The translations under genes were made by a program, and so were the position numbers. Below, one piece after another: positions 17,690-64,000 of a stretch of DNA of 64,000 bases. The notes under the pieces were generated by a model. It was not told where the DNA came from. It ran no database searches and saw nothing but the letters and a program-made list of their open reading frames with translations. Source of the stretch: Gammaproteobacteria bacterium. GTDB lineage: Bacteria; Pseudomonadota; Gammaproteobacteria; Eutrophobiales; Eutrophobiaceae. The stretch covers positions 1,987,620 through 2,051,619 of the forward strand of contig OZ244846.1 of NCBI GenBank assembly GCA_965220815.1, written 5' to 3'. Each line of letters begins with the position of its first letter. The first letter of the stretch is position 1.

Positions 17690-17797
17690 ACGTTTCTCCA
17701 TAAATTCCCAGCGTTGGTTCAGGTGATTGATTTTATCCATCAAAGTATACAATATCGAAAATATCATTTCCAGATTTTACGTTATATTCAGATGGGT

Positions 17798-24340: not shown

Positions 24341-24350
24341 GTTTATTCTA

Positions 24351-24606
24351 TATCCACAGATGACACAGATGAACGCAGATGATTTATTGTTTATTTATCC
24401 ACAGATTACACAGATTACACAGATATTTTCAGGTGTTATTTGTGTGCGTCTCCGGTTATCATTCCCGCGCAAGCAGGGACTCAACAGATAAATTCTTCCG
24501 TTTCAAAAAAAGTTTTTTACCTGCCATGTGTTTACATTCGTGATGTTAAGCAGAAGGATATGAAATCATTTCAATCATCTGTGTTAATCTGTGTAATCTG
24601 TGGATA
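24351..24606. mobile_element. MITE-like element inside the fhc operon (256 bp, two left ends and one right end)
   Basis: TA|TCCACAGATGACACAGATGAACGCAGAT, then a second TTATCCACAGATTACACAGATTACACAGAT at 24394, then the right end CATCTGTGTTAATCTGTGTAATCTGTGGA|TA at 24577-24606. The fhcA stop codon (24584-24586) lies inside the right end. Confidence 0.7.
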
Positions 24607-30156: not shown

Positions 30157-30168
30157 ATCATTGTGCTG

Positions 30169-32690: not shown

Positions 32691-32725
32691 ATTATTATCT
32701 GAATTCCGTAATCAGCCCGCGTATC

Positions 32726-38730: not shown

Positions 38731-38749
38731 GCGCAGCGCCAGCGCAACA

Positions 38750-38780
38750 AAAAACCCCGGCCTGCCCCGGGGTTTTTTTA
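38750..38780 (+). terminator. rho-independent terminator after fae
   Basis: AAAAACCCCGGcctgccCCGGGGTTTTTTTAT. Confidence 0.85.
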
Positions 38781-38857: not shown

Positions 38858-38887
38858 TTGAATTTCAGATTACCATTCTGCTACAAT
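38858..38887 (+). promoter_or_regulatory. candidate sigma70 promoter for the giant gene
   Basis: TTGAAT, 18-nt spacer, TACAAT. Confidence 0.3.
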
Positions 38888-39016
38888 GGGATGAGTACAT
38901 AAGATGCAAGATTACAATGAAGATGTCGTATATGATTTTAAGTCACCTGATCTCCAGGAGGGCACAGTTTTTCCTAGTTAAACAGGGTGTTACCGCGCCC
39001 TGCATGATCTGTTTTA

Positions 39017-39032
39017 CCCCCCCCCCCCCCCC
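39017..39032. repeat. homopolymeric C16 tract in the leader of the giant gene
   Basis: 16 consecutive C read directly, 121 nt upstream of the ATG at 39154. Confidence 0.9.
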
Positions 39033-39153: not shown

Positions 39154-42100
39154 ATGCGAGTGGACACACTCATAGCACCTGAAACCCTCCTCCGCGCACT
39201 TCTGGCTTGCGCCGGTGGTATCGGGTGCTTGTTGCTGGCGGGATTTCTGGCCGCGTTGCCGGGAGGAGTGGTAGCGCAGCAGGCGCCTTCGGTTTCTATT
39301 ACCAAACCAGCAGGTTCGGTGACAGAAGGAGAGACGGTGACTTTCACCGTAAGCAGGATCGGAGACAGTTCACAAGAACTGAGAGTGAACTTCGAAACTC
39401 AGGATGGAGATACAGGTGGAAATGCCTTTTTCACTGATGCAGTAGCGGGAAGTGACTATACGAGAGTATCCCGCACCCTTACCTTTCCAGCAGGAAACTC
39501 CCAGTCCCAGACAATTTCGGTGCAGACGCTGTCTGACGACGTTTATGAACCACTAGAATATTTCCATATAAGAGCGGTTGTCACCTACAACGATGGAGAA
39601 AAAGATATTACTCGTACTGTGCTTTCTCGCGATCAAAGAATCAGAGAAGCCCAGCAGAGATATCTTACCCTCAAACCTGTTTCATCATCGAGTTACTCCA
39701 TTCCTGAGTTCAGAGCAAAAGAAGGAGAGGAAAATAAGCTGACAATCGAACTTAACGAGCCTCTTCCATACGACCTGAGTATCACCTACACCGTCGGCAA
39801 CACGCTTCATACAACTGCCGAAAAGGGCAAAGACTACACGATGGAAACGGGTACAAAAACGATATCCAGCGGTCAGAAGTCTACCACCCTTATGCTCGAT
39901 ATCAAAGATGATGATGAGGTCGAACCGGATGAATACTTCACGATATTGTTTACTGAAATCGGAAAGGCTAATCCCCTGACTGTTCAAGAAACATACAACG
40001 AAGTTAGCTTTCAAGAAGGAAGCAACCTTTCCGTCCTCATTGAGGATAACGATTCGGGAGAGGGTGCCGTTTACTTGCGTGGGCAAGCGAGGAGTGGTCA
40101 ACTATCTGGCTATCCGGTCACCCGCAATACCCTTACCGAAGGTCAAAGCACAACTATCTACGCAGAAATAGCAGGTGGCGCGCCAAGCACAAGTATTAAC
40201 ATTCCACTCGAGGTCACAGGCTACCCATCAGGTGAAGTAACATCGGGCGACTACAGTATTCCCCCCTCTATACAAATCGCAGCCGGCGACAAAACCGGCA
40301 GCGTTACGCTGAGCATCACAGACGACGCCGTAGACGAGCGCTTCCGTGAATTGCTGGTCGTCAAAATTGATAATGCAGTGACTTCGACCGGCTACAGCAA
40401 GGGAGACCGTAGCGAGTTCCATGTCGTCATGGAGGATAACGACAAGACCGTAGTAGTGCTGAAGAACGAGGACAGAGAGGTCGCCTTGTCGGAGAATTCG
40501 GGCAAGCGGAAGACAACATTTGACATTGTGTTGGCGCGCATACCCAAACCAACTGCTAGCGGACCTCCCGGCTTTGATGTTGATATTAATGAAAGCGATC
40601 CCAAATTCACTCTAACTTATAAGGGCGAAGCAACACACGGTTCCGACTACAGAGCCACCACCTCAGTTCCAGGCTCAGACACGCGCTGCGGCAATACCGG
40701 TAACGATCCTAAAAATTCGAATCACATCTGCACCGTAACGCTCACGGTACTAGATGACAACCTGTATGAAGGGGGAGCCAAAACGACCGAAAAAATCAGT
40801 ATCAGCCTGGCAGGCGGGATGTTTAACGACGGCTTAGATCCCGCCACCAGCACGCCGATCAAACTTACGATTGAAGATAACGATACGCAACCCACGTTTT
40901 CCATCGAAGACGTCTCGGTCACTGAGGACGACCCGGCAAAATTCACAATCTCCCGTAGCGGCGCCAAGGAGAACAGGATTTCAGTACGCGCAAAGACTGC
41001 AATGGGCGGGTCGAACCCTGCACAATCCGCTGATTATGCCGCGCGCACACACACAGTGACCCTTGGCTCAGGCGTTATGAGTAACACTTTTCAAGTTGCG
41101 ATAACAGATGACATTATTCACGAGCCCGGTCCTCCCGAAACCTTTCTGGTAAAGCTGGACCAACCCAAAGACATCGGAGGTCTGCCTCCCCCCGCTATTG
41201 AGGATGACGAGGCTACCGGCACTATCAACGACAATGACGAAAAACCCTCAGCGCTTGAGATCACGGTAGATACCAACACCGCTACCAACGCTGACGATAC
41301 CAACATCGCCGAGGCCGCAGGCGAGACCGACGTCAAGGTTACCGCCACCATCACCAGCGGCACTCGTTTTGCCACCGCGCAAACTGTGGCTGTTACCGTG
41401 GGCAATAGTGACAACGACAATGAAGCCGTCGAGGGCACAGACTACGGCAATGTAGCCGGTTTTGACATCACCATCCCCGCAGGTCAGGCCAGTGGTACTC
41501 ACACTTTCAAACTGACGCCCACTGACGACGATATCGATGATGATAATGAAAAAATCAGTGTCGAAGGCGCTCTCGATGATTTAACCGTTACCCATGCCGC
41601 CATCACGATTGTGGATGACGACACCCGCGGCATTACCGTGGCGCCTGCCAGCCTGACCCTGGATGAGAAGGACGACTCGAATACCGCCACCAGCCAGGAA
41701 AACCAGGGCACCTACGATGTGGTACTTACCAGCGAACCTACGGGAGGCGAGGTGACGGTAAACGTTGCAAGCGGTGATGGAACTGTTGCCACGGTGGATA
41801 AGGCCAGCCTGACGTTCGATGCGACCAACTGGAAAACGGCACAGACTGTTACCGTGACCGCCCAGGACGACCCCATCGACAACACCGGCGATAAGCGCGA
41901 GACCACCATCATCCACACAGTCAGCGCCGCTGACACGGACTATGAAGGAGAGAAGGCAGAATCTGTCGATGTAACCGTCACCGACGACGACGCCGCGCCC
42001 ATGGCGCTCACGCTCAAGGTAGATACCGACGCCACTACTATCGGTGATCAGACCAACATAAACGAGGGCACCGGCTCACCCACCGTCTCACACACCGTGA

Positions 42101-45100
42101 CTGTCACCGCCACCCTGGACGGCGACACCCGTTTCGCCACCGAGCAGACCATCAACGTCACCGTAGGCGCCGCGAGTGACAGCGCCACCGAAGGAAGCGG
42201 CGGCGACTACGACACGGTGGCGGACTTCGAGATCACGCTGGATGCCAGTGAGGGAAGCGCTTCCAAGACGTTCATATTTACCCCTGATCCTGACAGCGTG
42301 GACGAACCGGATGAGACAATCAGCGTCAACGGTGTACTCTCCGGCGTAACGGTTGCAGGCACAACTATCACGCTCGAAGATGATGACGATACCCCCACAG
42401 TCACATTGGCGCTCGCGCCCGCATCGATAAACGAGAGCGGCGCCACCAACGCCAGCACGGTCACGGCCACGCTGAACGGCACATCCAGCGAGGCTGTGAC
42501 CCTCACTGTCTCCGCCACGCCGGTCTCGCCCGCGGTCGCAAGCGACATCACCTTGAGCAATAACAAAACACTGACAATCCCGGCTCTCTCTACAGACAGC
42601 ACCGGCGTCGTCACCATCACCGCGGTCGATAACCACGTGGACGCGGACAACAAGACAGTCACCGTTTCAGCCACTGCCTCAGGTGGCAACGGCCTTGCAG
42701 CGCCGGATGATGTAACTCTCACGATCACAGACGACGACGAACGCGGCATTAATGTGTCAAAGACAACATTGACGTTGGATGAGGCAGACGACACGGACAC
42801 CATGGACGCTGACGAGCATGAGGACACGTATAACGTCGTGCTCGAGAGTGAACCCACGGGCGGTACGGTGACGATAAATGTCGCAAGTGGCGATACGGAT
42901 ATAGCTATTGTCGCCCCGGCGAGTCTCACTTTTAATTCCTCCAACTGGAAGACGCCGCAACCAGTTACCGTCACCGCCGTACCCAACACGGCCGACGACC
43001 CGATGAACAGGCGCCTTGTCACTATTACCCACACCGTCAGCGCCGAGGGTACGGACTACGAGAGCGAAACCGCAAGCAACGTGGAAGTAACGGTAAACGA
43101 CGACGATGGAGCGCCATCGATGTCCATCAACCGCCCATCCGTGACCGAGGGTGACAGCGCCACGGCAACACTCACCTTCACAGTACGTCTGACACCGGCC
43201 AGCGGGAACCAGGTGACAGTAGCCTACGCGGACGCCGGCAGCGGCACCGCAACCTCAGCCACGGACTACGCAGCGTTGACTGCAGGTACGCTTACCTTTG
43301 CCCCCGGCGATACCAGCAAGCCTGTAGCGGTAACGGTGAACGGCGATGTGCTGGATGAGCCCGACGAAACGGTGGTCTTACGCCTGTCCTCGCTTGTCAA
43401 TGCCGTGTTTACGGGTGTAGCGGGGACCACTCTGGACGGCACAGGCACCATCACAGATAACGATCCGACACCAACGGTTTCAGTCTCCGACGCCACGGCA
43501 GTGAACGAAGGCAACGTGATGTCACCTGATCCTCCCAACAACATGACCTTCACGGTACAACTCTCCGCCGTAAGCGGCCAGACCGTGACAGTGCCCTACA
43601 CCCTGGGAGGGACAGCCACAGCCGGCGAGGATTACATCGAGCCTAACCCGCGCTCCGTCACCATCGCCGCAGGTTCCCCGTCTGCAACGATCACAATCCC
43701 CGTGAAAGGCGACGAGGTGGACGAGGATAACGAGACGGTGATAGTGACGCTGGGCACACCGACGAACGCAACAGTATCGACTGCCGAAGGCGCCGCCACT
43801 GCCACTGGAACGATCACGGACGATGACACCCGCGGCATCACCGTGATGCCGCTCACGCGCACCTTGGACGAGGTGGACAACACGGCCACCGACGCCATAA
43901 CGGAAAACCAGGCCACCTACACGGTGGTGCTTGACAGCCAGCCCACCGGCACCGTGACCGTCAACCTGGCCAGCAAGGACGGGACGGTGGCCACGGTCGG
44001 CACGGCCCGCCTGGAGTTCACCACCGGCAACTGGAACACGGTGCGCACGGTGACCATCACCGCGGTGCCGGACATCATCGACAACACCGGCAACCGGCGC
44101 ACGGTGGACATCGAGCACACGGTCAGCGCCGCCGGCACGGACTACAGTGGGGAGCGCGCGGCCAGCGTGGCCGTCACGGTCACGGACGACGATGCTGCAC
44201 CCAGCGGCATCACCCTCACGGCTAGCCCTGACTCGGTGGCGGAGGAGGGCGGCGCAGAGACCATCACCGTCACCGCCGCGGTAAACGGGATAACCCGTTA
44301 TGCGGAAGCCAAGACCGTGACGGTGAGTGTCGGCGGCGGTTCGGCCATCTCAGGCGCGGACTATATGACGGTGTCCAATTTCAATATTACCATTCCCGCG
44401 GGCGCGGCCAGTGAGGCTGAAACGTTCACGCTGACGCCGGCTAGTGACGTGCTGCACGAGGGCAATGAGACACTCAACGTAATGGGAACTCTGACCGGAA
44501 TCACGATAACCCCGGATGAGATTACCATCACCGATAATGACGCGGCGCCCACAGCGCTGACGTTGACAGTGGATGCTGACACGGGCACGGACAACGTGCA
44601 AAGCAGCATTGCCGAGGATAGTGGCGCCAAGACGGTGCGGGTGACGGCAACGCTGGATGGCAGTTCACAGTTTACCACTGATAAGACCGTTTCGGTGGAG
44701 GTGGGCAAGTCGGGCGACTCGGCCGGTGAAGGCTCGGACTATGCCACGGTTGGCGCCCTGACCATTACGATCAAAGCCGGGACATCGAGCGCGCACGTGG
44801 ACTTCACGCTCACGCCCACCAACGACGTGCTGGATGAGGAGAACGAGATCATCAGTCTTGACGGCACCGCGACGGGGCTGATGGTGGCCGATGCGGAGAT
44901 TACCCTGACCGACGATGACGCCACGCCCACTGGCATCACGCTGACGGTAGATACCAACGGCGCGACCGCCGGCACGCCGGACACGGTAGGCGAGGGTGCC
45001 GGGGCCACCACAGTCACCGTCATCGCCGCGGTCAACGGGACCACCCGTTACGTGGACGCCAAGACGGTGGCGGTGAGCGTGAGTGACGATGAAGCAACCT

Positions 45101-48100
45101 CACCAGCCGACTACGCGGCGGTGTCCAATTTTAACATTGTCATCCCCGCGGGCGCGGCCAGCCACACCAACACGTTTACCCTCACGCCCGTGAACGACAA
45201 CCTGGACGAGGAGAATGAAACGATAGACGTGACAGGCACGGTTCCCGGTTCCATCACTGTTACGCCTGCCACGGTAAGCCTCACCGACAATGACGACCCG
45301 CCCATTTTTTCCATTGCCGGTGACGCCGCGTCCGAGGGCGATGCGATTGACTTTGTTGTGACCCGCGGCGGGGCCACGGCGAACGTGGCGACGGTCAAGA
45401 TTGCCACCGCCGCCCATTCAGGTGACGATGTGAATCCTGCCGGCGCCGACGATTACACCGCGATTACAACAGCACAGACACTCAGTTTCGCCAGTGGGGA
45501 TACCAGCCAGACCGTCTCGGTACAGACGACCGAGGACGATTTATATGAGGAAGACGAGACCTTCCTGGCAGTACTGAGCGAGCCGGCGCTGGCGGAGGGA
45601 GACCCGGGCACGGGGGTGAGCATTGCGCCCAACGCCGGCAGCGCCACGGGCACGATACGGAACGATGATACCGAGCCGTCGTTTTCCATTACCGATGCCA
45701 GCGCCTCGGAAGGCGATGCCATCACCTTCACGGTGACCCGTTCCGGGGCCATGGACAATGCCGTGTCGGTATCCTGGAACACCAAGCCGGCGACCGGCGC
45801 CAATGCGGCTGCGACCTCAGATTACACGCCGGTAACAACGCCGACTCAACTGGACTTTGGCGCCGGTGTGGGCAGGGTGACGTTCACGGTCAGCACCACG
45901 GAGGACGTACTGGACGAGGGCAATGAGACCTTCCTGGTGGAGTTGACGAGTCCGGTAGGCGGCGCCATCACCACCGACGAGGCGACCGGTACTATCAACG
46001 ATGATGACGATGCACCGACTGGCATAACCTTGACAGTGGACGAGAACTCGTTCGCGGAGAATGCGGACACCGCAACGGTGACCGTCACTGCCACGGTCAC
46101 GGGCGGCACCACCTTTGCCGATACGAAGACAGTGGTGGTGAGCGTGGACGATGGCACGGCGATTTCTGGCACCGACTATGCAGCGGTGCCCGGCTTCAAC
46201 ATCGCCCTCGCTGTCGGCGCCGAGAGTGCCACCGGAACATTCAGCTTCAAACCGACGGACGACGAACTGGACGAGCCGAATGAGACACTGGACGTGACTG
46301 GGACCCTGACGGATGTGACGATCACGAAGGCCACGATCACGATCAACGACAATGATACGACGCCGAGTTTCAAGGTAGGGGATGCAAGTGCCGCGGAAGG
46401 GGAGGCATTGAGTTTCGTGGTGACGCGGGACGGTGCGACGGCAAACGTGGTGACGGTGGATTGGGCGACGGCGTTGGTGGACGGCGAGGCGTCAGCGATG
46501 GACTTCACAGCGGTGCCGGCAACGACGTTGACCTTTGCGGCGGGGGACACGACGAAGATGGTGACGGTGATGTCGACGGAGGACGTGCTGGACGAGGAGG
46601 ACGAGACGTTCGAGGTCAAGCTGACCAACCCGGCCAAGGGTGCGAGTGACCCGGGCAGCGTCCCGACGATCAGCGATGACACGGGTGAGGGGACCATCAC
46701 CGACGATGACGCGGCGCCGATGACGATGACCCTGACGGTGGATGCGGACACGGCCACGAACAACGTGCAGGGCAGCCTGGCCGAGGACGGCGGGGCGAAG
46801 ACGGTGCGGGTCACGGCCGCGATTACCGGCGCCACCCGCTTTGCCGCCGCGCAGACGGTGAGCGTGGCGGTGGGCAAGGCGATGGACAGCGCCCGGGAGG
46901 GGACGGACTACGCCACGGTGGCCGACCAGACCATCACGATTGCGGCGGGGGCGGCCAGCGGGCAGGTGGACTTCACGCTGACGCCCACGGACGATGACAT
47001 CGACGAGCCGAACGAGACGATAAGCATCGCGGGCACGCTGGCCGGTGTGACGTTCACCGACACCGTCATCACCATTACGGACGATGAGGCCCTGCCGACG
47101 CTGAGCCTGGCGCTCGGCGCAGCGTCGATTAACGAGAGCGGCAACGGCAACAGCACCGCGGTGACGGCGCGCTTGTCGGGCAAGTCCAGCGTGGACGTGA
47201 CGGTGGCGGTGGGCACGGCGCCGGGGGCGGACACGACCACCGGCGATTACACGGTGAGCGCCAACACGACGCTGACGATTGCCGCGGGGTCGACGGCGAG
47301 CACGGGGGAGGTGACCATCACCGCAGTCGATAACAAGGTGGACGCCCCGAACAAGAGCGTGACGGTCTCGGGCACGGCCAGTGGCGGCGGGGTGGCGAAC
47401 CCGGGCAACCAGACGTTGACCATCACGGACGATGACACCCGCGGCATCACCGTGACGCCGCTCACGCGCACCCTGGACGAGGTCGATGACGCGGACACCG
47501 ACGACGCTACGGAAAACCGGGCCACCTACACGGTGGTGCTCGACAGCGAGCCCACCGGCACCGTGACCGTCAACCTGGCCAGCAAGGACGGGACGGTGGC
47601 CACGGTCGGCACGGCCAGCCTGGTCTTCACCACCGCCGACTGGAACACGGTGCGCACGGTGACCGTCACCGCGGTGCCGGACATCATCGACAACACCGGC
47701 AATGCGCGCACGGTGGACATCGAGCACACGGTGGTGGCGGCGGGCACGGACTACGAGGACGAGAGTGCGGCCAGCGTGACCGTCACGGTCACCGACGATG
47801 ACGCGGCGCCGATGACGATGACCCTGACGGTGGATGCGGACACGGCCACGAACAACGTGCAGGGCAGCCTGGCCGAGGACGGCGGGGCGAAGACGGTGCG
47901 GGTCACGGCCGCGATTACCGGCGCCACCCGCTTTGCCGCCGCGCAGACGGTGAGCGTGGCGGTGGGCAAGGCGATGGACAGCGCCCGGGAGGGGACGGAC
48001 TACGCCACGGTGGCCGACCAGACCATCACGATTGCGGCGGGGGCGGCCAGCGGGCAGGTGGACTTCACGCTGACGCCCACGGACGATGACATCGACGAGC

Positions 48101-57100: not shown

Positions 57101-60100
57101 GCGCCCGGGAGGGGACGGACTACGCCGTTGTCGCCGACCTGAGCATCGTGATTGCGGCGGGGGAAGGCAGCGCGCACGCGGACTTCACGCTGACGCCGAC
57201 CGATGACGCCCTGGCGGAGGGCAGCGAGACGATAAGCATCGCGGGCACGGTGGCCGGGCTGAGTGTCACCGACACTGAAATTACCCTTAACGACGATGAC
57301 GTGGCGCCCACGGGCATCACGGTCACGGTGGACGTGGACCCGGACACGGTCGGCGACCAGACCAGTCTGGCCGAGGACGCCGGGGCGCGCACGGTGACGG
57401 TGACCGCCGCGGTGAACGGGGCGACCCGTTACGTGGCGGCGACGACGGTGGCGGTGGCGGTGGGCAAGGCGGATGACGGGGCCACGGAGGGCACGGACTA
57501 CGCCAACGTGGCCGACCTCAGCCTGACGATTGCGGCCGGTGAGCAGAGCGCCAGCGCCACGTTCACGCTGACGGTGACGGACGATGCCTTTAACGAGGGC
57601 AACGAGACCATCAGCGTGGACGGCACGGCGGGCACGCTGAGCGTGACCGATGCGGAAATCACCATTAACGACGATGACGCCGCGCCGGGCGGGATTGCGC
57701 TCTCGGTCTCCCCGGCCTCGGTGGGCGAGGGGGCCGGGGAGACGGAGGTGACGGTGACGGCCACGGTGGGCGGGGCCTCCCGTTACGAGGCGGCGCAGAC
57801 GGTGGCGGTGAGCGTGGGCGGGGGTACGGCCACCGCCCCGGCGGACTATGCGGCGGTGGCGGGGTTTAACATTGTCATTGCCGCGGGGGCGGTGAGCGCG
57901 ACCGGCACGTTCGACCTGACGCCGGTGGACGATGCGCTGGCGGAGGGCAACGAGACCATCGACGTGACGGGCGTCGCCGGCGCGCTGGACGTGACCGACA
58001 CGGAGATTACCCTTAACGACGATGACACCGCGCCCACGGCGCTGACCCTGACGGTGGATGCGGACACGGCCACGAACAACGTGCAGGGCAGCCTGGCCGA
58101 GAACGGCGGGGCGAAGACGGTGCGGGTGACGGCGACCCTGGACGGGGCCGGGCGCTTTACCGAGGCCAAGACCGTGACGGTGGCGGTGGGCAAGAACACG
58201 GACGGCGCCCGGGAGGGGACGGACTACGCCGTTGTCGCCGACCTGAGCATCGTGATTGCGGCGGGGGAAGGCAGCGCGCACGCGGACTTCACGCTGACGC
58301 CGACCGATGACGCCCTGGCGGAGGGCAGCGAGACGATAAGCATCGCGGGCACGGTGGCCGGGCTGAGTGTCACCGACACTGAAATTACCCTTAACGACGA
58401 TGACGTGGCGCCCACGGGCATCACGGTCACGGTGGACGTGGACCCGGACACGGTCGGCGACCAGACCAGTCTGGCCGAGGACGCCGGGGCGCGCACGGTG
58501 ACGGTGACCGCCGCGGTGAACGGGGCGACCCGTTACGTGGCGGCGACGACGGTGGCGGTGGCGGTGGGCAAGGCGGATGACGGGGCCACGGAGGGCACGG
58601 ACTACGCCAACGTGGCCGACCTCAGCCTGACGATTGCGGCCGGTGAGCAGAGCGCCAGCGCCACGTTCACGCTGACGGTGACGGACGATGCCTTTAACGA
58701 GGGCAACGAGACCATCAGCGTGGACGGCACGGCGGGCACGCTGAGCGTGACCGATGCGGAAATCACCATTAACGACGATGACGCCGCGCCGGGCGGGATT
58801 GCGCTCTCGGTCTCCCCGGCCTCGGTGGGCGAGGGGGCCGGGGAGACGGAGGTGACGGTGACGGCCACGGTGGGCGGGGCCTCCCGTTACGAGGCGGCGC
58901 AGACGGTGGCGGTGAGCGTGGGCGGGGGTACGGCCACCGCCCCGGCGGACTATGCGGCGGTGGCGGGGTTTAACATTGTCATTGCCGCGGGGGCGGTGAG
59001 CGCGACCGGCACGTTCGACCTGACGCCGGTGGACGATGCGCTGGCGGAGGGCAACGAGACCATCGACGTGACGGGCGTCGCCGGCGCGCTGGACGTGACC
59101 GACACGGAGATTACCCTTAACGACGATGACACCGCGCCCACGGCGCTGACCCTGACGGTGGATGCGGACACGGCCACGAACAACGTGCAGGGCAGCCTGG
59201 CCGAGAACGGCGGGGCGAAGACGGTGCGGGTGACGGCGACCCTGGACGGGGCCGGGCGCTTTACCGAGGCCAAGACCGTGACGGTGGCGGTGGGCAAGAA
59301 CACGGACGGCGCCCGGGAGGGGACGGACTACGCCGTTGTCGCCGACCTGAGCATCGTGATTGCGGCGGGGGAAGGCAGCGCGCACGCGGACTTCACGCTG
59401 ACGCCGACCGATGACGCCCTGGCGGAGGGCAGCGAGACGATAAGCATCGCGGGCACGGTGGCCGGGCTGAGTGTCACCGACACTGAAATTACCCTTAACG
59501 ACGATGACGTGGCGCCCACGGGCATCACGGTCACGGTGGACGTGGACCCGGACACGGTCGGCGACCAGACCAGTCTGGCCGAGGACGCCGGGGCGCGCAC
59601 GGTGACGGTGACCGCCGCGGTGAACGGGGCGACCCGTTACGTGGCGGCGACGACGGTGGCGGTGGCGGTGGGCAAGGCGGATGACGGGGCCACGGAGGGC
59701 ACGGACTACGCCAACGTGGCCGACCTCAGCCTGACGATTGCGGCCGGTGAGCAGAGCGCCAGCGCCACGTTCACGCTGACGGTGACGGACGATGCCTTTA
59801 ACGAGGGCAACGAGACCATCAGCGTGGACGGCACGGCGGGCACGCTGAGCGTGACCGATGCGGAAATCACCATTAACGACGATGACGCCGCGCCGGGCGG
59901 GATTGCGCTCTCGGTCTCCCCGGCCTCGGTGGGCGAGGGGGCCGGGGAGACGGAGGTGACGGTGACGGCCACGGTGGGCGGGGCCTCCCGTTACGAGGCG
60001 GCGCAGACGGTGGCGGTGAGCGTGGGCGGGGGTACGGCCACCGCCCCGGCGGACTATGCGGCGGTGGCGGGGTTTAACATTGTCATTGCCGCGGGGGCGG

Positions 60101-63100
60101 TGAGCGCGACCGGCACGTTCGACCTGACGCCGGTGGACGATGCGCTGGCGGAGGGCAACGAGACCATCGACGTGACGGGCGTCGCCGGCGCGCTGGACGT
60201 GACCGACACGGAGATTACCCTTAACGACGATGACACCGCGCCCACGGCGCTGACCCTGACGGTGGATGCGGACACGGCCACGAACAACGTGCAGGGCAGC
60301 CTGGCCGAGAACGGCGGGGCGAAGACGGTGCGGGTGACGGCGACCCTGGACGGGGCCGGGCGCTTTACCGAGGCCAAGACCGTGACGGTGGCGGTGGGCA
60401 AGAACACGGACGGCGCCCGGGAGGGGACGGACTACGCCGTTGTCGCCGACCTGAGCATCGTGATTGCGGCGGGGGAAGGCAGCGCGCACGCGGACTTCAC
60501 GCTGACGCCGACCGATGACGCCCTGGCGGAGGGCAGCGAGACGATAAGCATCGCGGGCACGGTGGCCGGGCTGAGTGTCACCGACACTGAAATTACCCTT
60601 AACGACGATGACGTGGCGCCCACGGGCATCACGGTCACGGTGGACGTGGACCCGGACACGGTCGGCGACCAGACCAGTCTGGCCGAGGACGCCGGGGCGC
60701 GCACGGTGACGGTGACCGCCGCGGTGAACGGGGCGACCCGTTACGTGGCGGCGACGACGGTGGCGGTGGCGGTGGGCAAGGCGGATGACGGGGCCACGGA
60801 GGGCACGGACTACGCCAACGTGGCCGACCTCAGCCTGACGATTGCGGCCGGTGAGCAGAGCGCCAGCGCCACGTTCACGCTGACGGTGACGGACGATGCC
60901 TTTAACGAGGGCAACGAGACCATCAGCGTGGACGGCACGGCGGGCACGCTGAGCGTGACCGATGCGGAAATCACCATTAACGACGATGACGCCGCGCCGG
61001 GCGGGATTGCGCTCTCGGTCTCCCCGGCCTCGGTGGGCGAGGGGGCCGGGGAGACGGAGGTGACGGTGACGGCCACGGTGGGCGGGGCCTCCCGTTACGA
61101 GGCGGCGCAGACGGTGGCGGTGAGCGTGGGCGGGGGTACGGCCACCGCCCCGGCGGACTATGCGGCGGTGGCGGGGTTTAACATTGTCATTGCCGCGGGG
61201 GCGGTGAGCGCGACCGGCACGTTCGACCTGACGCCGGTGGACGATGCGCTGGCGGAGGGCAACGAGACCATCGACGTGACGGGCGTCGCCGGCGCGCTGG
61301 ACGTGACCGACACGGAGATTACCCTTAACGACGATGACACCGCGCCCACGGCGCTGACCCTGACGGTGGATGCGGACACGGCCACGAACAACGTGCAGGG
61401 CAGCCTGGCCGAGAACGGCGGGGCGAAGACGGTGCGGGTGACGGCGACCCTGGACGGGGCCGGGCGCTTTACCGAGGCCAAGACCGTGACGGTGGCGGTG
61501 GGCAAGAACACGGACGGCGCCCGGGAGGGGACGGACTACGCCGTTGTCGCCGACCTGAGCATCGTGATTGCGGCGGGGGAAGGCAGCGCGCACGCGGACT
61601 TCACGCTGACGCCGACCGATGACGCCCTGGCGGAGGGCAGCGAGACGATAAGCATCGCGGGCACGGTGGCCGGGCTGAGTGTCACCGACACTGAAATTAC
61701 CCTTAACGACGATGACGTGGCGCCCACGGGCATCACGGTCACGGTGGACGTGGACCCGGACACGGTCGGCGACCAGACCAGTCTGGCCGAGGACGCCGGG
61801 GCGCGCACGGTGACGGTGACCGCCGCGGTGAACGGGGCGACCCGTTACGTGGCGGCGACGACGGTGGCGGTGGCGGTGGGCAAGGCGGATGACGGGGCCA
61901 CGGAGGGCACGGACTACGCCAACGTGGCCGACCTCAGCCTGACGATTGCGGCCGGTGAGCAGAGCGCCAGCGCCACGTTCACGCTGACGGTGACGGACGA
62001 TGCCTTTAACGAGGGCAACGAGACCATCAGCGTGGACGGCACGGCGGGCACGCTGAGCGTGACCGATGCGGAAATCACCATTAACGACGATGACGCCGCG
62101 CCGGGCGGGATTGCGCTCTCGGTCTCCCCGGCCTCGGTGGGCGAGGGGGCCGGGGAGACGGAGGTGACGGTGACGGCCACGGTGGGCGGGGCCTCCCGTT
62201 ACGAGGCGGCGCAGACGGTGGCGGTGAGCGTGGGCGGGGGTACGGCCACCGCCCCGGCGGACTATGCGGCGGTGGCGGGGTTTAACATTGTCATTGCCGC
62301 GGGGGCGGTGAGCGCGACCGGCACGTTCGACCTGACGCCGGTGGACGATGCGCTGGCGGAGGGCAACGAGACCATCGACGTGACGGGCGTCGCCGGCGCG
62401 CTGGACGTGACCGACACGGAGATTACCCTTAACGACGATGACACCGCGCCCACGGCGCTGACCCTGACGGTGGATGCGGACACGGCCACGAACAACGTGC
62501 AGGGCAGCCTGGCCGAGAACGGCGGGGCGAAGACGGTGCGGGTGACGGCGACCCTGGACGGGGCCGGGCGCTTTACCGAGGCCAAGACCGTGACGGTGGC
62601 GGTGGGCAAGAACACGGACGGCGCCCGGGAGGGGACGGACTACGCCGTTGTCGCCGACCTGAGCATCGTGATTGCGGCGGGGGAAGGCAGCGCGCACGCG
62701 GACTTCACGCTGACGCCGACCGATGACGCCCTGGCGGAGGGCAGCGAGACGATAAGCATCGCGGGCACGGTGGCCGGGCTGAGTGTCACCGACACTGAAA
62801 TTACCCTTAACGACGATGACGTGGCGCCCACGGGCATCACGGTCACGGTGGACGTGGACCCGGACACGGTCGGCGACCAGACCAGTCTGGCCGAGGACGC
62901 CGGGGCGCGCACGGTGACGGTGACCGCCGCGGTGAACGGGGCGACCCGTTACGTGGCGGCGACGACGGTGGCGGTGGCGGTGGGCAAGGCGGATGACGGG
63001 GCCACGGAGGGCACGGACTACGCCAACGTGGCCGACCTCAGCCTGACGATTGCGGCCGGTGAGCAGAGCGCCAGCGCCACGTTCACGCTGACGGTGACGG

Positions 63101-64000
63101 ACGATGCCTTTAACGAGGGCAACGAGACCATCAGCGTGGACGGCACGGCGGGCACGCTGAGCGTGACCGATGCGGAAATCACCATTAACGACGATGACGC
63201 CGCGCCGGGCGGGATTGCGCTCTCGGTCTCCCCGGCCTCGGTGGGCGAGGGGGCCGGGGAGACGGAGGTGACGGTGACGGCCACGGTGGGCGGGGCCTCC
63301 CGTTACGAGGCGGCGCAGACGGTGGCGGTGAGCGTGGGCGGGGGTACGGCCACCGCCCCGGCGGACTATGCGGCGGTGGCGGGGTTTAACATTGTCATTG
63401 CCGCGGGGGCGGTGAGCGCGACCGGCACGTTCGACCTGACGCCGGTGGACGATGCGCTGGCGGAGGGCAACGAGACCATCGACGTGACGGGCGTCGCCGG
63501 CGCGCTGGACGTGACCGACACGGAGATTACCCTTAACGACGATGACACCGCGCCCACGGCGCTGACCCTGACGGTGGATGCGGACACGGCCACGAACAAC
63601 GTGCAGGGCAGCCTGGCCGAGAACGGCGGGGCGAAGACGGTGCGGGTGACGGCGACCCTGGACGGGGCCGGGCGCTTTACCGAGGCCAAGACCGTGACGG
63701 TGGCGGTGGGCAAGAACACGGACGGCGCCCGGGAGGGGACGGACTACGCCGTTGTCGCCGACCAGCGTATCACGATTGCGGCGGGGGCGGGCAGCGCGCA
63801 CGTGGACTTCACGCTGACCCCCACGAACGATGCTATAGACGAACCAGACGAGATGATCAGCATTGAGGGTTCGCTTGCCGGTGTCACTTTCACCCAGGCA
63901 ACCATCACCATCACGGACGATGACGACGCGCCGACGACACTGACCCTGTCGGTGGATGCGGACACGGGCACGAACGGTACGCAAAACAGTATCGCGGAGG
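39154..64000 (+). CDS. giant Calx-beta-repeat extracellular/adhesin-like protein, 3' end beyond the window (>8,282 codons in window)
   Basis: Hand translation from the ATG at 39154 (in-frame stop TAG at 39103-39105 upstream) is open through nt 64000. The product is built from ~120-aa units ending in DEPNET..GT..GVT.TD..ITI.DDD (Calx-beta-like), Thr/Val/Asp/Ala-rich and highly acidic. The N-terminus is a signal-like hydrophobic segment (LLACAGGIGCLLLAGFLAALPGGVVAQQ). Absent from the ORF track because it has no in-window stop. Confidence 0.85.
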   Translation, partial: MRVDTLIAPETLLRALLACAGGIGCLLLAGFLAALPGGVVAQQAPSVSITKPAGSVTEGETVTFTVSRIGDSSQELRVNFETQDGDTGGNAFFTDAVAGSDYTRVSRTLTFPAGNSQSQTISVQTLSDDVYEPLEYFHIRAVVTYNDGEKDITRTVLSRDQRIREAQQRYLTLKPVSSSSYSIPEFRAKEGEENKLTIELNEPLPYDLSITYTVGNTLHTTAEKGKDYTMETGTKTISSGQKSTTLMLDIKDDDEVEPDEYFTILFTEIGKANPLTVQETYNEVSFQEGSNLSVLIEDNDSGEGAVYLRGQARSGQLSGYPVTRNTLTEGQSTTIYAEIAGGAPSTSINIPLEVTGYPSGEVTSGDYSIPPSIQIAAGDKTGSVTLSITDDAVDERFRELLVVKIDNAVTSTGYSKGDRSEFHVVMEDNDKTVVVLKNEDREVALSENSGKRKTTFDIVLARIPKPTASGPPGFDVDINESDPKFTLTYKGEATHGSDYRATTSVPGSDTRCGNTGNDPKNSNHICTVTLTVLDDNLYEGGAKTTEKISISLAGGMFNDGLDPATSTPIKLTIEDNDTQPTFSIEDVSVTEDDPAKFTISRSGAKENRISVRAKTAMGGSNPAQSADYAARTHTVTLGSGVMSNTFQVAITDDIIHEPGPPETFLVKLDQPKDIGGLPPPAIEDDEATGTINDNDEKPSALEITVDTNTATNADDTNIAEAAGETDVKVTATITSGTRFATAQTVAVTVGNSDNDNEAVEGTDYGNVAGFDITIPAGQASGTHTFKLTPTDDDIDDDNEKISVEGALDDLTVTHAAITIVDDDTRGITVAPASLTLDEKDDSNTATSQENQGTYDVVLTSEPTGGEVTVNVASGDGTVATVDKASLTFDATNWKTAQTVTVTAQDDPIDNTGDKRETTIIHTVSAADTDYEGEKAESVDVTVTDDDAAPMALTLKVDTDATTIGDQTNINEGTGSPTVSHTVTVTATLDGDTRFATEQTINVTVGAASDSATEGSGGDYDTVADFEITLDASEGSASKTFIFTPDPDSVDEPDETISVNGVLSGVTVAGTTITLEDDDDTPTVTLALAPASINESGATNASTVTATLNGTSSEAVTLTVSATPVSPAVASDITLSNNKTLTIPALSTDSTGVVTITAVDNHVDADNKTVTVSATASGGNGLAAPDDVTLTITDDDERGINVSKTTLTLDEADDTDTMDADEHEDTYNVVLESEPTGGTVTINVASGDTDIAIVAPASLTFNSSNWKTPQPVTVTAVPNTADDPMNRRLVTITHTVSAEGTDYESETASNVEVTVNDDDGAPSMSINRPSVTEGDSATATLTFTVRLTPASGNQVTVAYADAGSGTATSATDYAALTAGTLTFAPGDTSKPVAVTVNGDVLDEPDETVVLRLSSLVNAVFTGVAGTTLDGTGTITDNDPTPTVSVSDATAVNEGNVMSPDPPNNMTFTVQLSAVSGQTVTVPYTLGGTATAGEDYIEPNPRSVTIAAGSPSATITIPVKGDEVDEDNETVIVTLGTPTNATVSTAEGAATATGTITDDDTRGITVMPLTRTLDEVDNTATDAITENQATYTVVLDSQPTGTVTVNLASKDGTVATVGTARLEFTTGNWNTVRTVTITAVPDIIDNTGNRRTVDIEHTVSAAGTDYSGERAASVAVTVTDDDAAPSGITLTASPDSVAEEGGAETITVTAAVNGITRYAEAKTVTVSVGGGSAISGADYMTVSNFNITIPAGAASEAETFTLTPASDVLHEGNETLNVMGTLTGITITPDEITITDNDAAPTALTLTVDADTGTDNVQSSIAEDSGAKTVRVTATLDGSSQFTTDKTVSVEVGKSGDSAGEGSDYATVGALTITIKAGTSSAHVDFTLTPTNDVLDEENEIISLDGTATGLMVADAEITLTDDDATPTGITLTVDTNGATAGTPDTVGEGAGATTVTVIAAVNGTTRYVDAKTVAVSVSDDEATSPADYAAVSNFNIVIPAGAASHTNTFTLTPVNDNLDEENETIDVTGTVPGSITVTPATVSLTDNDDPPIFSIAGDAASEGDAIDFVVTRGGATANVATVKIATAAHSGDDVNPAGADDYTAITTAQTLSFASGDTSQTVSVQTTEDDLYEEDETFLAVLSEPALAEGDPGTGVSIAPNAGSATGTIRNDDTEPSFSITDASASEGDAITFTVTRSGAMDNAVSVSWNTKPATGANAAATSDYTPVTTPTQLDFGAGVGRVTFTVSTTEDVLDEGNETFLVELTSPVGGAITTDEATGTINDDDDAPTGITLTVDENSFAENADTATVTVTATVTGGTTFADTKTVVVSVDDGTAISGTDYAAVPGFNIALAVGAESATGTFSFKPTDDELDEPNETLDVTGTLTDVTITKATITINDNDTTPSFKVGDASAAEGEALSFVVTRDGATANVVTVDWATALVDGEASAMDFTAVPATTLTFAAGDTTKMVTVMSTEDVLDEEDETFEVKLTNPAKGASDPGSVPTISDDTGEGTITDDDAAPMTMTLTVDADTATNNVQGSLAEDGGAKTVRVTAAITGATRFAAAQTVSVAVGKAMDSAREGTDYATVADQTITIAAGAASGQVDFTLTPTDDDIDEPNETISIAGTLAGVTFTDTVITITDDEALPTLSLALGAASINESGNGNSTAVTARLSGKSSVDVTVAVGTAPGADTTTGDYTVSANTTLTIAAGSTASTGEVTITAVDNKVDAPNKSVTVSGTASGGGVANPGNQTLTITDDDTRGITVTPLTRTLDEVDDADTDDATENRATYTVVLDSEPTGTVTVNLASKDGTVATVGTASLVFTTADWNTVRTVTVTAVPDIIDNTGNARTVDIEHTVVAAGTDYEDESAASVTVTVTDDDAAPMTMTLTVDADTATNNVQGSLAEDGGAKTVRVTAAITGATRFAAAQTVSVAVGKAMDSAREGTDYATVADQTITIAAGAASGQVDFTLTPTDDDIDEPNETISIAGTLAGVTFTDTVITITDDEALPTLSLALGAASINESGNGNSTAVTARLSGKSSVDVTVAVGTAPGADTTTGDYTVSANTTLTIAAGSTASTGEVTITAVDNKVDAPNKSVTVSGTASGGGVANPGNQTLTITDDDTRGITVTPLTRTLDEVDDADTDDATENRATYTVVLDSEPTGTVTVNLASKDGTVATVGTASLVFTTADWNTVRTVTVTAVPDIIDNTGNARTVDIEHTVVAAGTDYEDESAASVTVTVTDDDAAPMTMTLTVDADTATNNVQGSLAEDGGAKTVRVTAAITGATRFAAAQTVSVAVGKAMDSAREGTDYATVADQTITIAAGAASGQVDFTLTPTDDDIDEPNETISIAGTLAGVTFTDTVITITDDEALPTLSLALGAASINESGNGNSTAVTARLSGKSSVDVTVAVGTAPGADTTTGDYTVSANTTLTIAAGSTASTGEVTITAVDNKVDAPNKSVTVSGTASGGGVANPGNQTLTITDDDTRGITVTPLTRTLDEVDDADTDDATENRATYTVVLDSEPTGTVTVNLASKDGTVATVGTASLVFTTADWNTVRTVTVTAVPDIIDNTGNARTVDIEHTVVAAGTDYEDESAASVTVTVTDDDAAPMTMTLTVDADTATNNVQGSLAEDGGAKTVRVTAAITGATRFAAAQTVSVAVGKAMDSAREGTDYATVADQTITIAAGAASGQVDFTLTPTDDDIDEPNETISIAGTLAGVTFTDTVITITDDEALPTLSLALGAASINESGNGNSTAVTARLSGKSSVDVTVAVGTAPGADTTTGDYTVSANTTLTIAAGSTASTGEVTITAVDNKVDAPNKSVTVSGTASGGGVANPGNQTLTITDDDTRGITVTPLTRTLDEVDDADTDDATENRATYTVVLDSEPTGTVTVNLASKDGTVATVGTASLVFTTADWNTVRTVTVTAVPDIIDNTGNARTVDIEHTVVAAGTDYEDESAASVTVTVTDDDAAPMTMTLTVDADTATNNVQGSLAEDGGAKTVRVTAAITGATRFAAAQTVSVAVGKAMDSAREGTDYATVADQTITIAAGAASGQVDFTLTPTDDDIDEPNETISIAGTLAGVTFTDTVITITDDEALPTLSLALGAASINESGNGNSTAVTARLSGKSSVDVTVAVGTAPGADTTTGDYTVSANTTLTIAAGSTASTGEVTITAVDNKVDAPNKSVTVSGTASGGGVANPGNQTLTITDDDTRGITVTPLTRTLDEVDDADTDDATENRATYTVVLDSEPTGTVTVNLASKDGTVATVGTASLVFTTADWNTVRTVTVTAVPDIIDNTGNARTVDIEHTVVAAGTDYEDESAASVTVTVTDDDAAPMTMTLTVDADTATNNVQGSLAEDGGAKTVRVTAAITGATRFAAAQTVSVAVGKAMDSAREGTDYATVADQTITIAAGAASGQVDFTLTPTDDDIDEPNETISIAGTLAGVTFTDTVITITDDEALPTLSLALGAASINESGNGNSTAVTARLSGKSSVDVTVAVGTAPGADTTTGDYTVSANTTLTIAAGSTASTGEVTITAVDNKVDAPNKSVTVSGTASGGGVANPGNQTLTITDDDTRGITVTPLTRTLDEVDDADTDDATENRATYTVVLDSEPTGTVTVNLASKDGTVATVGTASLVFTTADWNTVRTVTVTAVPDIIDNTGNARTVDIEHTVVAAGTDYEDESAASVTVTVTDDDAAPGGIALSVSPASVGEGAGETEVTVTATVGGASRYEAAQTVAVSVGGGTATAPADYAAVAGFNIVIAAGAVSATGTFDLTPVDDALAEGNETIDVTGVAGALDVTDTEITLNDDDTAPTALTLTVDADTATNNVQGSLAENGGAKTVRVTATLDGAGRFTEAKTVTVAVGKNTDGAREGTDYAVVADLSIVIAAGEGSAHADFTLTPTDDALAEGSETISIAGTVAGLSVTDTEITLNDDDVAPTGITVTVDVDPDTVGDQTSLAEDAGARTVTVTAAVNGATRYVAATTVAVAVGKADDGATEGTDYANVADLSLTIAAGEQSASATFTLTVTDDAFNEGNETISVDGTAGTLSVTDAEITINDDDAAPGGIALSVSPASVGEGAGETEVTVTATVGGASRYEAAQTVAVSVGGGTATAPADYAAVAGFNIVIAAGAVSATGTFDLTPVDDALAEGNETIDVTGVAGALDVTDTEITLNDDDTAPTALTLTVDADTATNNVQGSLAENGGAKTVRVTATLDGAGRFTEAKTVTVAVGKNTDGAREGTDYAVVADLSIVIAAGEGSAHADFTLTPTDDALAEGSETISIAGTVAGLSVTDTEITLNDDDVAPTGITVTVDVDPDTVGDQTSLAEDAGARTVTVTAAVNGATRYVAATTVAVAVGKADDGATEGTDYANVADLSLTIAAGEQSASATFTLTVTDDAFNEGNETISVDGTAGTLSVTDAEITINDDDAAPGGIALSVSPASVGEGAGETEVTVTATVGGASRYEAAQTVAVSVGGGTATAPADYAAVAGFNIVIAAGAVSATGTFDLTPVDDALAEGNETIDVTGVAGALDVTDTEITLNDDDTAPTALTLTVDADTATNNVQGSLAENGGAKTVRVTATLDGAGRFTEAKTVTVAVGKNTDGAREGTDYAVVADLSIVIAAGEGSAHADFTLTPTDDALAEGSETISIAGTVAGLSVTDTEITLNDDDVAPTGITVTVDVDPDTVGDQTSLAEDAGARTVTVTAAVNGATRYVAATTVAVAVGKADDGATEGTDYANVADLSLTIAAGEQSASATFTLTVTDDAFNEGNETISVDGTAGTLSVTDAEITINDDDAAPGGIALSVSPASVGEGAGETEVTVTATVGGASRYEAAQTVAVSVGGGTATAPADYAAVAGFNIVIAAGAVSATGTFDLTPVDDALAEGNETIDVTGVAGALDVTDTEITLNDDDTAPTALTLTVDADTATNNVQGSLAENGGAKTVRVTATLDGAGRFTEAKTVTVAVGKNTDGAREGTDYAVVADLSIVIAAGEGSAHADFTLTPTDDALAEGSETISIAGTVAGLSVTDTEITLNDDDVAPTGITVTVDVDPDTVGDQTSLAEDAGARTVTVTAAVNGATRYVAATTVAVAVGKADDGATEGTDYANVADLSLTIAAGEQSASATFTLTVTDDAFNEGNETISVDGTAGTLSVTDAEITINDDDAAPGGIALSVSPASVGEGAGETEVTVTATVGGASRYEAAQTVAVSVGGGTATAPADYAAVAGFNIVIAAGAVSATGTFDLTPVDDALAEGNETIDVTGVAGALDVTDTEITLNDDDTAPTALTLTVDADTATNNVQGSLAENGGAKTVRVTATLDGAGRFTEAKTVTVAVGKNTDGAREGTDYAVVADLSIVIAAGEGSAHADFTLTPTDDALAEGSETISIAGTVAGLSVTDTEITLNDDDVAPTGITVTVDVDPDTVGDQTSLAEDAGARTVTVTAAVNGATRYVAATTVAVAVGKADDGATEGTDYANVADLSLTIAAGEQSASATFTLTVTDDAFNEGNETISVDGTAGTLSVTDAEITINDDDAAPGGIALSVSPASVGEGAGETEVTVTATVGGASRYEAAQTVAVSVGGGTATAPADYAAVAGFNIVIAAGAVSATGTFDLTPVDDALAEGNETIDVTGVAGALDVTDTEITLNDDDTAPTALTLTVDADTATNNVQGSLAENGGAKTVRVTATLDGAGRFTEAKTVTVAVGKNTDGAREGTDYAVVADLSIVIAAGEGSAHADFTLTPTDDALAEGSETISIAGTVAGLSVTDTEITLNDDDVAPTGITVTVDVDPDTVGDQTSLAEDAGARTVTVTAAVNGATRYVAATTVAVAVGKADDGATEGTDYANVADLSLTIAAGEQSASATFTLTVTDDAFNEGNETISVDGTAGTLSVTDAEITINDDDAAPGGIALSVSPASVGEGAGETEVTVTATVGGASRYEAAQTVAVSVGGGTATAPADYAAVAGFNIVIAAGAVSATGTFDLTPVDDALAEGNETIDVTGVAGALDVTDTEITLNDDDTAPTALTLTVDADTATNNVQGSLAENGGAKTVRVTATLDGAGRFTEAKTVTVAVGKNTDGAREGTDYAVVADLSIVIAAGEGSAHADFTLTPTDDALAEGSETISIAGTVAGLSVTDTEITLNDDDVAPTGITVTVDVDPDTVGDQTSLAEDAGARTVTVTAAVNGATRYVAATTVAVAVGKADDGATEGTDYANVADLSLTIAAGEQSASATFTLTVTDDAFNEGNETISVDGTAGTLSVTDAEITINDDDAAPGGIALSVSPASVGEGAGETEVTVTATVGGASRYEAAQTVAVSVGGGTATAPADYAAVAGFNIVIAAGAVSATGTFDLTPVDDALAEGNETIDVTGVAGALDVTDTEITLNDDDTAPTALTLTVDADTATNNVQGSLAENGGAKTVRVTATLDGAGRFTEAKTVTVAVGKNTDGAREGTDYAVVADLSIVIAAGEGSAHADFTLTPTDDALAEGSETISIAGTVAGLSVTDTEITLNDDDVAPTGITVTVDVDPDTVGDQTSLAEDAGARTVTVTAAVNGATRYVAATTVAVAVGKADDGATEGTDYANVADLSLTIAAGEQSASATFTLTVTDDAFNEGNETISVDGTAGTLSVTDAEITINDDDAAPGGIALSVSPASVGEGAGETEVTVTATVGGASRYEAAQTVAVSVGGGTATAPADYAAVAGFNIVIAAGAVSATGTFDLTPVDDALAEGNETIDVTGVAGALDVTDTEITLNDDDTAPTALTLTVDADTATNNVQGSLAENGGAKTVRVTATLDGAGRFTEAKTVTVAVGKNTDGAREGTDYAVVADLSIVIAAGEGSAHADFTLTPTDDALAEGSETISIAGTVAGLSVTDTEITLNDDDVAPTGITVTVDVDPDTVGDQTSLAEDAGARTVTVTAAVNGATRYVAATTVAVAVGKADDGATEGTDYANVADLSLTIAAGEQSASATFTLTVTDDAFNEGNETISVDGTAGTLSVTDAEITINDDDAAPGGIALSVSPASVGEGAGETEVTVTATVGGASRYEAAQTVAVSVGGGTATAPADYAAVAGFNIVIAAGAVSATGTFDLTPVDDALAEGNETIDVTGVAGALDVTDTEITLNDDDTAPTALTLTVDADTATNNVQGSLAENGGAKTVRVTATLDGAGRFTEAKTVTVAVGKNTDGAREGTDYAVVADQRITIAAGAGSAHVDFTLTPTNDAIDEPDEMISIEGSLAGVTFTQATITITDDDDAPTTLTLSVDADTGTNGTQNSIAE
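46701..53252 (+). repeat. tandem array A inside the giant gene: 6 apparently identical copies of a 1092-bp (364-aa) unit
   Basis: Unit starts at 46701, 47793, 48885, 49977, 51069 and 52161. Sequence lines are identical copy to copy. Identical antisense track ORFs are spaced exactly 1092 nt apart (46908, 48000 ... 52368). Confidence 0.9.
53254..63753 (+). repeat. tandem array B inside the giant gene: about 9.5 apparently identical copies of a 1104-bp (368-aa, three-subdomain) unit
   Basis: Unit starts at 53254 + n x 1104 (n = 0..9). Identical antisense track ORFs at 53430, 54534 ... 63366. The 10th copy diverges at ~63754. Confidence 0.9.

Follow-up and report, generated by a model that had tools for sequence, protein, structure and literature searches.

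A giant gene on the plus strand

The right-hand part of a 64,000-nucleotide stretch of gammaproteobacterial DNA (contig OZ244846.1, positions 1,987,620 to 2,051,619; here called the window) raises the question of which strand is coding, and for what. A mechanical list of open reading frames (ORFs) places a 5,830-residue ORF there on the minus strand, whereas the initial annotation, made from the sequence alone, had proposed a giant plus-strand gene for a Calx-beta repeat protein secreted by a type I secretion system (T1SS). The plus strand is a real, very large gene. From the ATG at 39154, frame +1 of the translated window stays open to base 63999, a run of 8,282 codons with zero stops, so that the visible 5' part of the gene (39154..64000, plus strand) is open at the window edge, as annotated. 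The closest in-frame stop upstream of the ATG is at 39103, and the remaining two plus frames contain 472 and 283 stops over the same region. The GC content by codon position is 0.62/0.53/0.84, a pattern with the same shape as in the neighbouring genes and stronger, and Pfam matches (see below) support the same frame. The visible part of the product has a mass of 827 kDa and is very acidic, as had been noted, with 1,286 Asp and Glu against 305 Lys and Arg residues and a pI of 4.05; Thr (17.4%), Ala (14.9%), Val (10.9%), Asp (10.4%) and Gly (9.3%) are its most abundant residues.

We consider it fairly probable that this gene specifies a Sec-exported Calx-beta rod, anchored by a barrel at the cell surface in an autotransporter-like manner. 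The plus strand would then encode the first 8,282 residues of a single giant acidic cell-surface protein, in which a Sec signal peptide is followed by a rod of ≈66 β-sandwich modules of the Calx-beta type. The missing C-terminus would most likely comprise a linker helix and an outer-membrane β-barrel, by analogy with N-terminally collinear homologues. After Sec export, the protein would be presented at the cell surface in the manner of a type V (autotransporter-like) adhesin rather than a type I one, and the modules would probably stiffen and/or adhere through Ca2+, as they do in other Calx-beta proteins.

The antisense ORFs

The 5,830-residue ORF on the minus strand (46492..63984) has a GC content by codon position of 0.92/0.54/0.64. 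Its position 1 is position 3 of the plus frame, where GC is 0.84, and the comparison of third-position GC (GC3) between the strands thus favors the plus strand. The translated product would contain 23.6% Arg, 14% Gly, 13.4% Val and 9.4% His, and a Pfam scan returned no family above threshold. Having no domain support and peaking in GC at codon position 1, the ORF is recognizable as an antisense shadow, as initially proposed, and a minus-strand gene was rejected on these two grounds. No closed ORF in the mechanical list is longer, but its Arg- and His-heavy product, the position of its stops and the coincidence of its limits with two perfect tandem arrays leave practically no chance that it is real.

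In the register of this ORF, antisense stops are possible only opposite a TTA, CTA or TCA codon in the sense frame. The giant gene contains 31 such codons, all at or before 46492, and there are consequently no stops beyond that point. The open reverse strand had been attributed to the codon bias of the giant gene. The bias is indeed there, but the explanation was incomplete, because the two perfect arrays (46697-53264 and 53253-63763) are also needed: with both arrays consisting of exact repeats, only ≈2.6 kb of unique sequence had to avoid TTA, CTA and TCA. The limits of the shadow ORF (46492-63984) match the extent of both arrays.

Four smaller minus-strand ORFs between 42.1 and 46.9 kb lie wholly within the giant gene. 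Two of them (42088..42636 and 43522..44118) are in the register of the 5,830-residue ORF and have the same position-1 GC peak (0.75 and 0.83), while the other two (42207..43034 and 46176..46877) are in a second antisense register and encode Ser/Val-rich products. As a lesson for annotation, the mechanical ORF list gives a 5,830-residue artefact at this locus and misses a real gene of 8,282+ residues.

Calx-beta modules and tandem arrays

When the plus-strand translation was searched with the Pfam Calx-beta profile (PF03160), it matched with E = 6e-67 (223.5 bits) over 9 stretches and with E = 3e-81 (269.6 bits) over 19 stretches, or 28 matches, which bears out the Calx-beta nature of the protein. 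Scored singly, only one of the six module types in the arrays passed the gathering cut-off of 27 bits (29.5 bits, E = 8e-7). A second fell just under it (25.3 bits, E = 1.6e-5), and a 122-residue module denoted "Y" had no Pfam match. An iterative profile search nevertheless united all of the array and N-terminal module types except Y in one family, to which Y is a distant relative (hhalign probability 96%, E = 5e-9). On their own, then, not all modules are recognized as Calx-beta by Pfam.

A profile built from 22 distinct Calx-type modules of the window matched the Ca-binding domains of NCX1 and Drosophila CALX with E-values from 9e-16 to 7e-10, including the structures 3us9, 8sgi, 3rb5 and 2fws (E = 9e-16 to 3e-12). 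The module consensus retains the acidic motif TxTDDxxDExNET and a terminal DDD, and residues E12, D55, Y56 and D82 are invariant or nearly so. From these conserved acidic motifs, we infer that the modules bind Ca2+.

The visible part of the protein contains ≈66 complete modules. The non-repeated N-terminal third (aa 42-2515; 39277..46696, plus strand) was resolved by iterative profile search into 16 diverged Calx-beta-type modules and 3 Y modules, with an unassigned stretch at aa 412-566. It is followed by ≈17 kb that consist of two tandem arrays, each with three modules per unit and 100% identity between its own copies, which together hold 47 of the ≈66 modules. Array A (46697..53264, plus strand) contains 6.0 copies of a 1,092-bp unit encoding a 126-residue Calx-like module, a 116-residue Calx-like module and the 122-residue Y module. 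Array B (53253..63763, plus strand) contains 9.5 copies of a 1,104-bp unit encoding three Calx-beta-type modules of 116, 126 and 126 residues. Nucleotide self-comparison gave zero mismatches at a lag of 1,092 over 46697-52172 and at a lag of 1,104 over 53253-62659. Module alignment of the remaining sequence (63764..64000, plus strand) showed a hybrid module end, after which a further module begins. Because the modules diverge again after array B, the gene must extend past the window.

Recent amplification or homogenization is the best explanation for the two perfect arrays. We considered the possibility that the arrays, and with them the extreme length of the gene, arose during assembly by over-expansion or consensus homogenization of shorter, less regular repeats. 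Repeat-aware assemblers and polishers can produce mismatch-free runs of 1.1-kb repeats such as those seen here over 6.6 kb and 10.5 kb, and the copy number is that of the assembled sequence. However, the frame is kept through both arrays, with clean junctions to the flanking diverged modules; near-identical tandem modules are also present in the relatives P0147, P0149 and P0217; and an independent assembly of a close relative (L002) aligns to every copy of array A at 92%. An artefact on this scale is therefore improbable, and even a single copy per unit would leave a protein of >3,500 residues.

GC3 was seen to climb along 39154-63763, from 0.52 to 0.70 and 0.78, and then to 0.94 and 0.91 in the arrays, compared to ≈0.70 in the neighbouring genes. 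This could reflect a foreign origin, or gene conversion with a GC bias within the arrays.

N-terminus and secretion route

By inspection, the N-terminus, MRVDTLIAPETLLRALLACAGGIGCLLLAGFLAALPGGVVA followed by QQ, begins with charged residues, continues into a long hydrophobic core and closes with a small-x-small motif of the cleavage type. The 41 residues (39154..39276, plus strand) are a predicted Sec-type signal peptide, with cleavage probably after VVA. An equivalent sequence, ...LLLAxLLAALPLQAVA/Q, is conserved in the orthologous fragments P0001-P0012, so the hydrophobic leader noted in the initial annotation has its counterpart in orthologues. Because the C-terminus of the giant gene lies beyond the window, the rest of the secretion route had to be approached through homologues.

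Giant Calx-beta or immunoglobulin (Ig)-like adhesins with identical tandem repeats are classic T1SS substrates. By this precedent, the window protein would be an adhesin of the repeats-in-toxin (RTX) type, comparable to LapA, SiiE and MpIBP, that carries a C-terminal secretion signal and has its ATP-binding cassette (ABC) exporter, membrane fusion protein (MFP) and TolC genes downstream of the window. That downstream region lies outside the sequence at hand, and sub-threshold matches to a LapA domain (E = 1e-3) were found on the 116-residue module of array A and in the N-terminal 300 residues. Several observations oppose such a route: the signal peptide is of the Sec type and conserved; none of the 30 ORFs scanned in the 39 kb upstream of the giant gene is an ABC exporter, MFP or TolC gene; the 150 best giant homologues are essentially free of RTX nonapeptides, with 0-4 GGxGxD motifs per protein; and homologues with intact ends terminate in an outer-membrane barrel. 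The type I reading of the initial annotation is probably wrong, and we regard a T1SS-secreted RTX adhesin as highly improbable.

A C-terminal barrel in the homologues

A HMMER search of representative sequences with aa 1-1200 yielded 16,654 relatives. It was the source of all full-length giants, the longest of which has 7,937 residues. Two full-length collinear homologues have intact ends: P0146 (7,300 residues, with query residues 14-823 aligned to 10-805) and P0145 (7,203 residues). Both terminate in a conserved helix, PMPAAWLGRFGRTVAEQALDGIAGRIAA, a spacer and an all-β domain of ≈420 residues that ends in ...RW. Among the 150 best giant homologues, a profile of this barrel matched 61, in 57 of which it was located at the very C-terminus, and 53 of the 150 have F or W as their terminal residue. 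Most of the remaining giants end at contig edges or in apparently frameshifted sequence. At 16 of the 22 related genome loci, the barrel forms the last part of the same frame, and several members carry the NCBI name [quoted passage not shown]. For three fragments (P0025, P0105 and P0034), the surroundings ended at a contig edge or in a gene remnant, and no C-terminus was found there.

AlphaFold2 models of the domain (predicted local distance difference test scores of 79.8 and, for the full translocator, 72.5) were all-β after a 26-residue helix. The best structural matches of the helix and barrel unit, taken from the predicted model, were the autotransporter translocators of NalP, AIDA-I, Hbp and EstA. 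In sequence, the barrel is only marginally like the Pfam Autotransporter family (PF03797), which matched 4 of 23 barrel domains and 2 of 27 full translocators (best E = 7e-13) and is weak or absent in most members; an NCBIfam scan of the barrel gave no match. The giant family is therefore autotransporter-like in its working, while strict membership is not proven. By analogy with these homologues, we infer a similar barrel for the window gene itself.

A number of observations weigh against this picture. The C-terminus and the downstream genes are outside the window. The exact 40-mer at the window end was absent from the genome and metagenome contig collections, and the downstream contig was not recovered; in a protein scan of genome contigs with aa 7764-8282, the closest relative was only 59% identical. 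The predicted model has ≈19 strand segments after the helix, rather than 12. None of the three closest barrel-bearing homologues matches PF03797 at E = 0.01, and comparison of the barrel profile with the PDB sequences gave chance matches only. A passenger of >8,000 residues made of β-sandwiches is atypical for type Va. In addition, the Ca2+ binding and adhesion of the giant protein are predicted only, and the zero-mismatch arrays could in part be an assembly or polishing effect, which makes the copy numbers uncertain.

These points leave room for a Sec-exported giant that takes another route (type II secretion, release as a polymer of the periplasm or matrix, or some other anchor), or for a gene that is truncated or inactivated downstream, in either of which cases the barrel of the homologues would not apply. 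The family is often broken: P0034 is a remnant beside mobile elements, and integrase genes interrupt the giant genes at loci L031 and L032. The giant gene is missing after fae in a related strain (L001), and an actinomycetotal Ca. Poriferisocius locus gave no barrel match, although the ORF there runs off the end. On the other hand, the window gene has 8,282 intact codons with a strong coding bias, both collinear homologues with complete ends carry the barrel, and the upstream genes resemble those of proteobacterial methylotrophs, which would imply an outer membrane (see below). We consider these alternatives unlikely, though less so than a type I route, and retain the barrel-anchored, autotransporter-like arrangement.

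Comparison with known systems

The T1SS giants LapA of Pseudomonas, SiiE of Salmonella and MpIBP of Marinomonas primoryensis resemble the window protein in being large, acidic rods of Ca2+-type β-sandwiches with DNA-identical tandem repeats. They differ in that they have no cleavable Sec signal, carry a C-terminal RTX region and are encoded beside ABC/MFP/TolC genes, whereas the window family has a Sec-type signal and its homologues are RTX-poor and barrel-ended.

Type Va autotransporters such as AIDA-I, Hbp, NalP and EstA have an N-terminal Sec signal, and such a signal was seen in the window protein by inspection and conservation. Their passenger, however, is a β-helix, while that of the window protein consists of ≈66 or more Calx-beta sandwiches and is several times longer. 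The barrel of the homologues also departs from type Va, being too divergent for PF03797 in most members and having more than 12 strand segments in the model. Inverse autotransporters (intimin/invasin, type Ve) export long arrays of Ig-like β-sandwiches by a type V mechanism; their barrel is N-terminal, whereas that in the homologues of the window gene is C-terminal.

BapP of Pseudoalteromonas tunicata is a Calx-beta/Big_9 biofilm adhesin with a predicted Sec signal and a debated secretion route, described in a report that also attributes Calx-beta-like domains to LapA and treats giant repeat adhesins as T1SS substrates (PMC12153261). BapP resembles the window protein in combining Calx-beta repeats with a predicted Sec signal peptide. 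It differs in being much smaller (a PCR product of ≈5.3 kb), in having an N-terminal β-propeller and in lying beside T1SS-like genes, and no barrel is mentioned (PMC12153261).

The protein thus combines a familiar domain type with an uncommon architecture that has been little described, and we found no description of a Sec-plus-C-terminal-barrel design for giant Calx-beta proteins in the full-text literature. The evidence shifts this giant Calx-beta family from the T1SS/RTX adhesin class to such a design.

Leader region and poly-C tract

The giant gene is parted from an upstream cluster of tetrahydromethanopterin (H4MPT) genes by the intrinsic terminator of fae (38749..38778, plus strand), a 12-bp stem followed by a T run. 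The spacer in front of the giant gene is 423 nt long and AT-richer. Its best promoter-like site, TTGAAT-18-TACAAT with an extended -10 TG (38858..38887, plus strand), is predicted; the element TGcTA(C/A)AAT is kept in the related loci L002, L003 and L005. A candidate small ORF of 25 codons, MQDYNEDVVYDFKSPDLQEGTVFPS and a stop (38904..38981, plus strand), lies between the fae terminator and a poly-C tract. It is kept in L002 and L003, where its changes are a mixture of synonymous and conservative ones and an AGGAGG precedes it. An Rfam scan of the leader revealed no known RNA family, all matches being far below the gathering score.

The poly-C tract (39017..39032, plus strand) is a run of 16 C located 121 nt upstream of the ATG, and is a candidate slipped-strand switch. 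The only other homopolymer in the window (at least 8 nt for C or G, at least 9 nt for A or T) is a C8 at 28073. With the same left flank, the tract is C16 in the window, C13 in L002 (4128-4140) and L003 (1568-1580), and C10 in L005 (9877-9886). Homologous genes or two-gene operons are likewise preceded, at a distance of 20-175 nt, by G or C tracts of 9-20 nt in L006 (4037-4048), L007 (2621-2630), L031 (1581-1589), L032 (1565-1574), L009 (1493-1502), L012 (2125-2135), L014 (3926-3945) and L020 (9247-9258). Counting the window, the tract is present in 12 of the 16 loci with a visible 5' end and spans several phyla; L011, L016, L021 and L033 have none. Of 12 tracts of at least 10 nt in the 543 kb of fetched loci, 10 are in this position upstream of a giant gene or operon. 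Between L031 and L032, which are related contigs of one metagenome, the tract differs in length (G9 and G10, respectively), with the caveat that homopolymer lengths in assemblies are error-prone.

This distribution suggests that the tract is a phase-variation switch of the giant gene, that is, a contingency locus. It resembles the poly-C of Bordetella fim and the tracts of Neisseria opc and porA, in which a G/C homopolymer of 9-20 nt precedes a surface-protein gene and varies in length between close strains. Unlike in loci of that type, the window tract lies downstream of the best promoter-like site and would be in the 5' untranslated region, and the mechanism may therefore differ. In L020, the tract forms the spacer between -35 and -10. 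A promoter-spacer model fits L020, but neither the window nor L005, and was rejected as the general mechanism.

Two further arrangements were seen at related loci. A G10 tract in L023 (13172-13181) is located exactly where two overlapping Calx-type frames change register within the coding region, which could be in-frame phase variation or a sequencing error. In one lineage, a gene for ≈410-460 residues with a signal peptide and no Pfam family precedes and overlaps the giant gene (L007 2833-4056, L031 1640-3004, L032 1625-3004 and L012 2157-3461), and the G/C tract lies before that gene.

Relatives and habitat

A genome scan found homologues of 27-59% identity in metagenome-assembled genomes (MAGs) of many groups, including Thermodesulfobacteriota, Dadabacteria, Alpha- and Gammaproteobacteria, Rhodothermales, Terriglobia, Acidimicrobiia and others. 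Several of these MAGs have Porifer- or Spongii- names, and one such family name was found in a sponge genome note that reports associated metagenome sequences. Among the closest genome relatives, most are MAGs with names or a source pointing to sponges. We hypothesize that the organism of the window is a sponge dweller whose giant protein interacts with the aggregation factor of its host.

Calx-beta domains are known to be enriched in sponge symbionts, but only as a statistical finding (PMC9531527, PMC11706023). The present locus gives this finding a concrete molecule, with a size, a module grammar, a likely anchor and a candidate on/off switch, which together amount to a testable hypothesis of symbiont-host adhesion. 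The sponge aggregation factors MAFp4 and AqAFs are extracellular, contain 2-15 Calx-beta domains and have Ca2+-dependent adhesiveness (PMC5400394). They share the Calx-beta domain with the window protein, but are eukaryotic host proteins with Wreath/VWA/VWD domains. More speculatively, and with a rather low likelihood, the giants may form an undescribed autotransporter-like class with a Calx-beta rod that has spread horizontally among sponge bacteria of many phyla, is switched by poly-C/G tracts and engages or mimics the host aggregation factor, thereby anchoring the symbionts in the mesohyl or aiding their escape from phagocytosis.

Neighbourhood and instability of the locus

Directly upstream of the giant gene is fae (Pfam Fae, E = 2e-68). 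Two paralogous fhc-type clusters on the minus strand (22629-26260 and 29347-34090) contain GXGXG, FTR/FTR_C and Amidohydro_3 genes, the second also a 454-residue ORF without a Pfam match, and adjoin mch, a CitG-like gene and fae. Further upstream genes encode pyrroloquinoline quinone (PQQ) dehydrogenases (2107-3927 and 18196-20196), SoxYZ (16853-17767), a TonB-dependent receptor and housekeeping functions. In their sequence, the upstream genes point to a methylotroph. They resemble what we take to be the gene set of proteobacterial methylotrophs, which would imply that an outer membrane is present.

The order mch-citG-fae-giant gene recurs in L005, where the giant gene is ≈52% identical, and the close relatives L002 and L003 likewise have the giant gene after fae. 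In L001 (10757-14802), an identical Fae protein is encoded, but fae is followed by Fic and AAA-ATPase genes and there is no giant gene; strains thus differ in whether they carry the giant gene here. In L031 (4435-6686) and L032 (4435-6680), pairs of phage-type integrase genes cut short the homologous giant gene. In L008 (10001-18566), the giant gene is left as an 884-residue remnant beside integrase, transposase and toxin-antitoxin-like genes.

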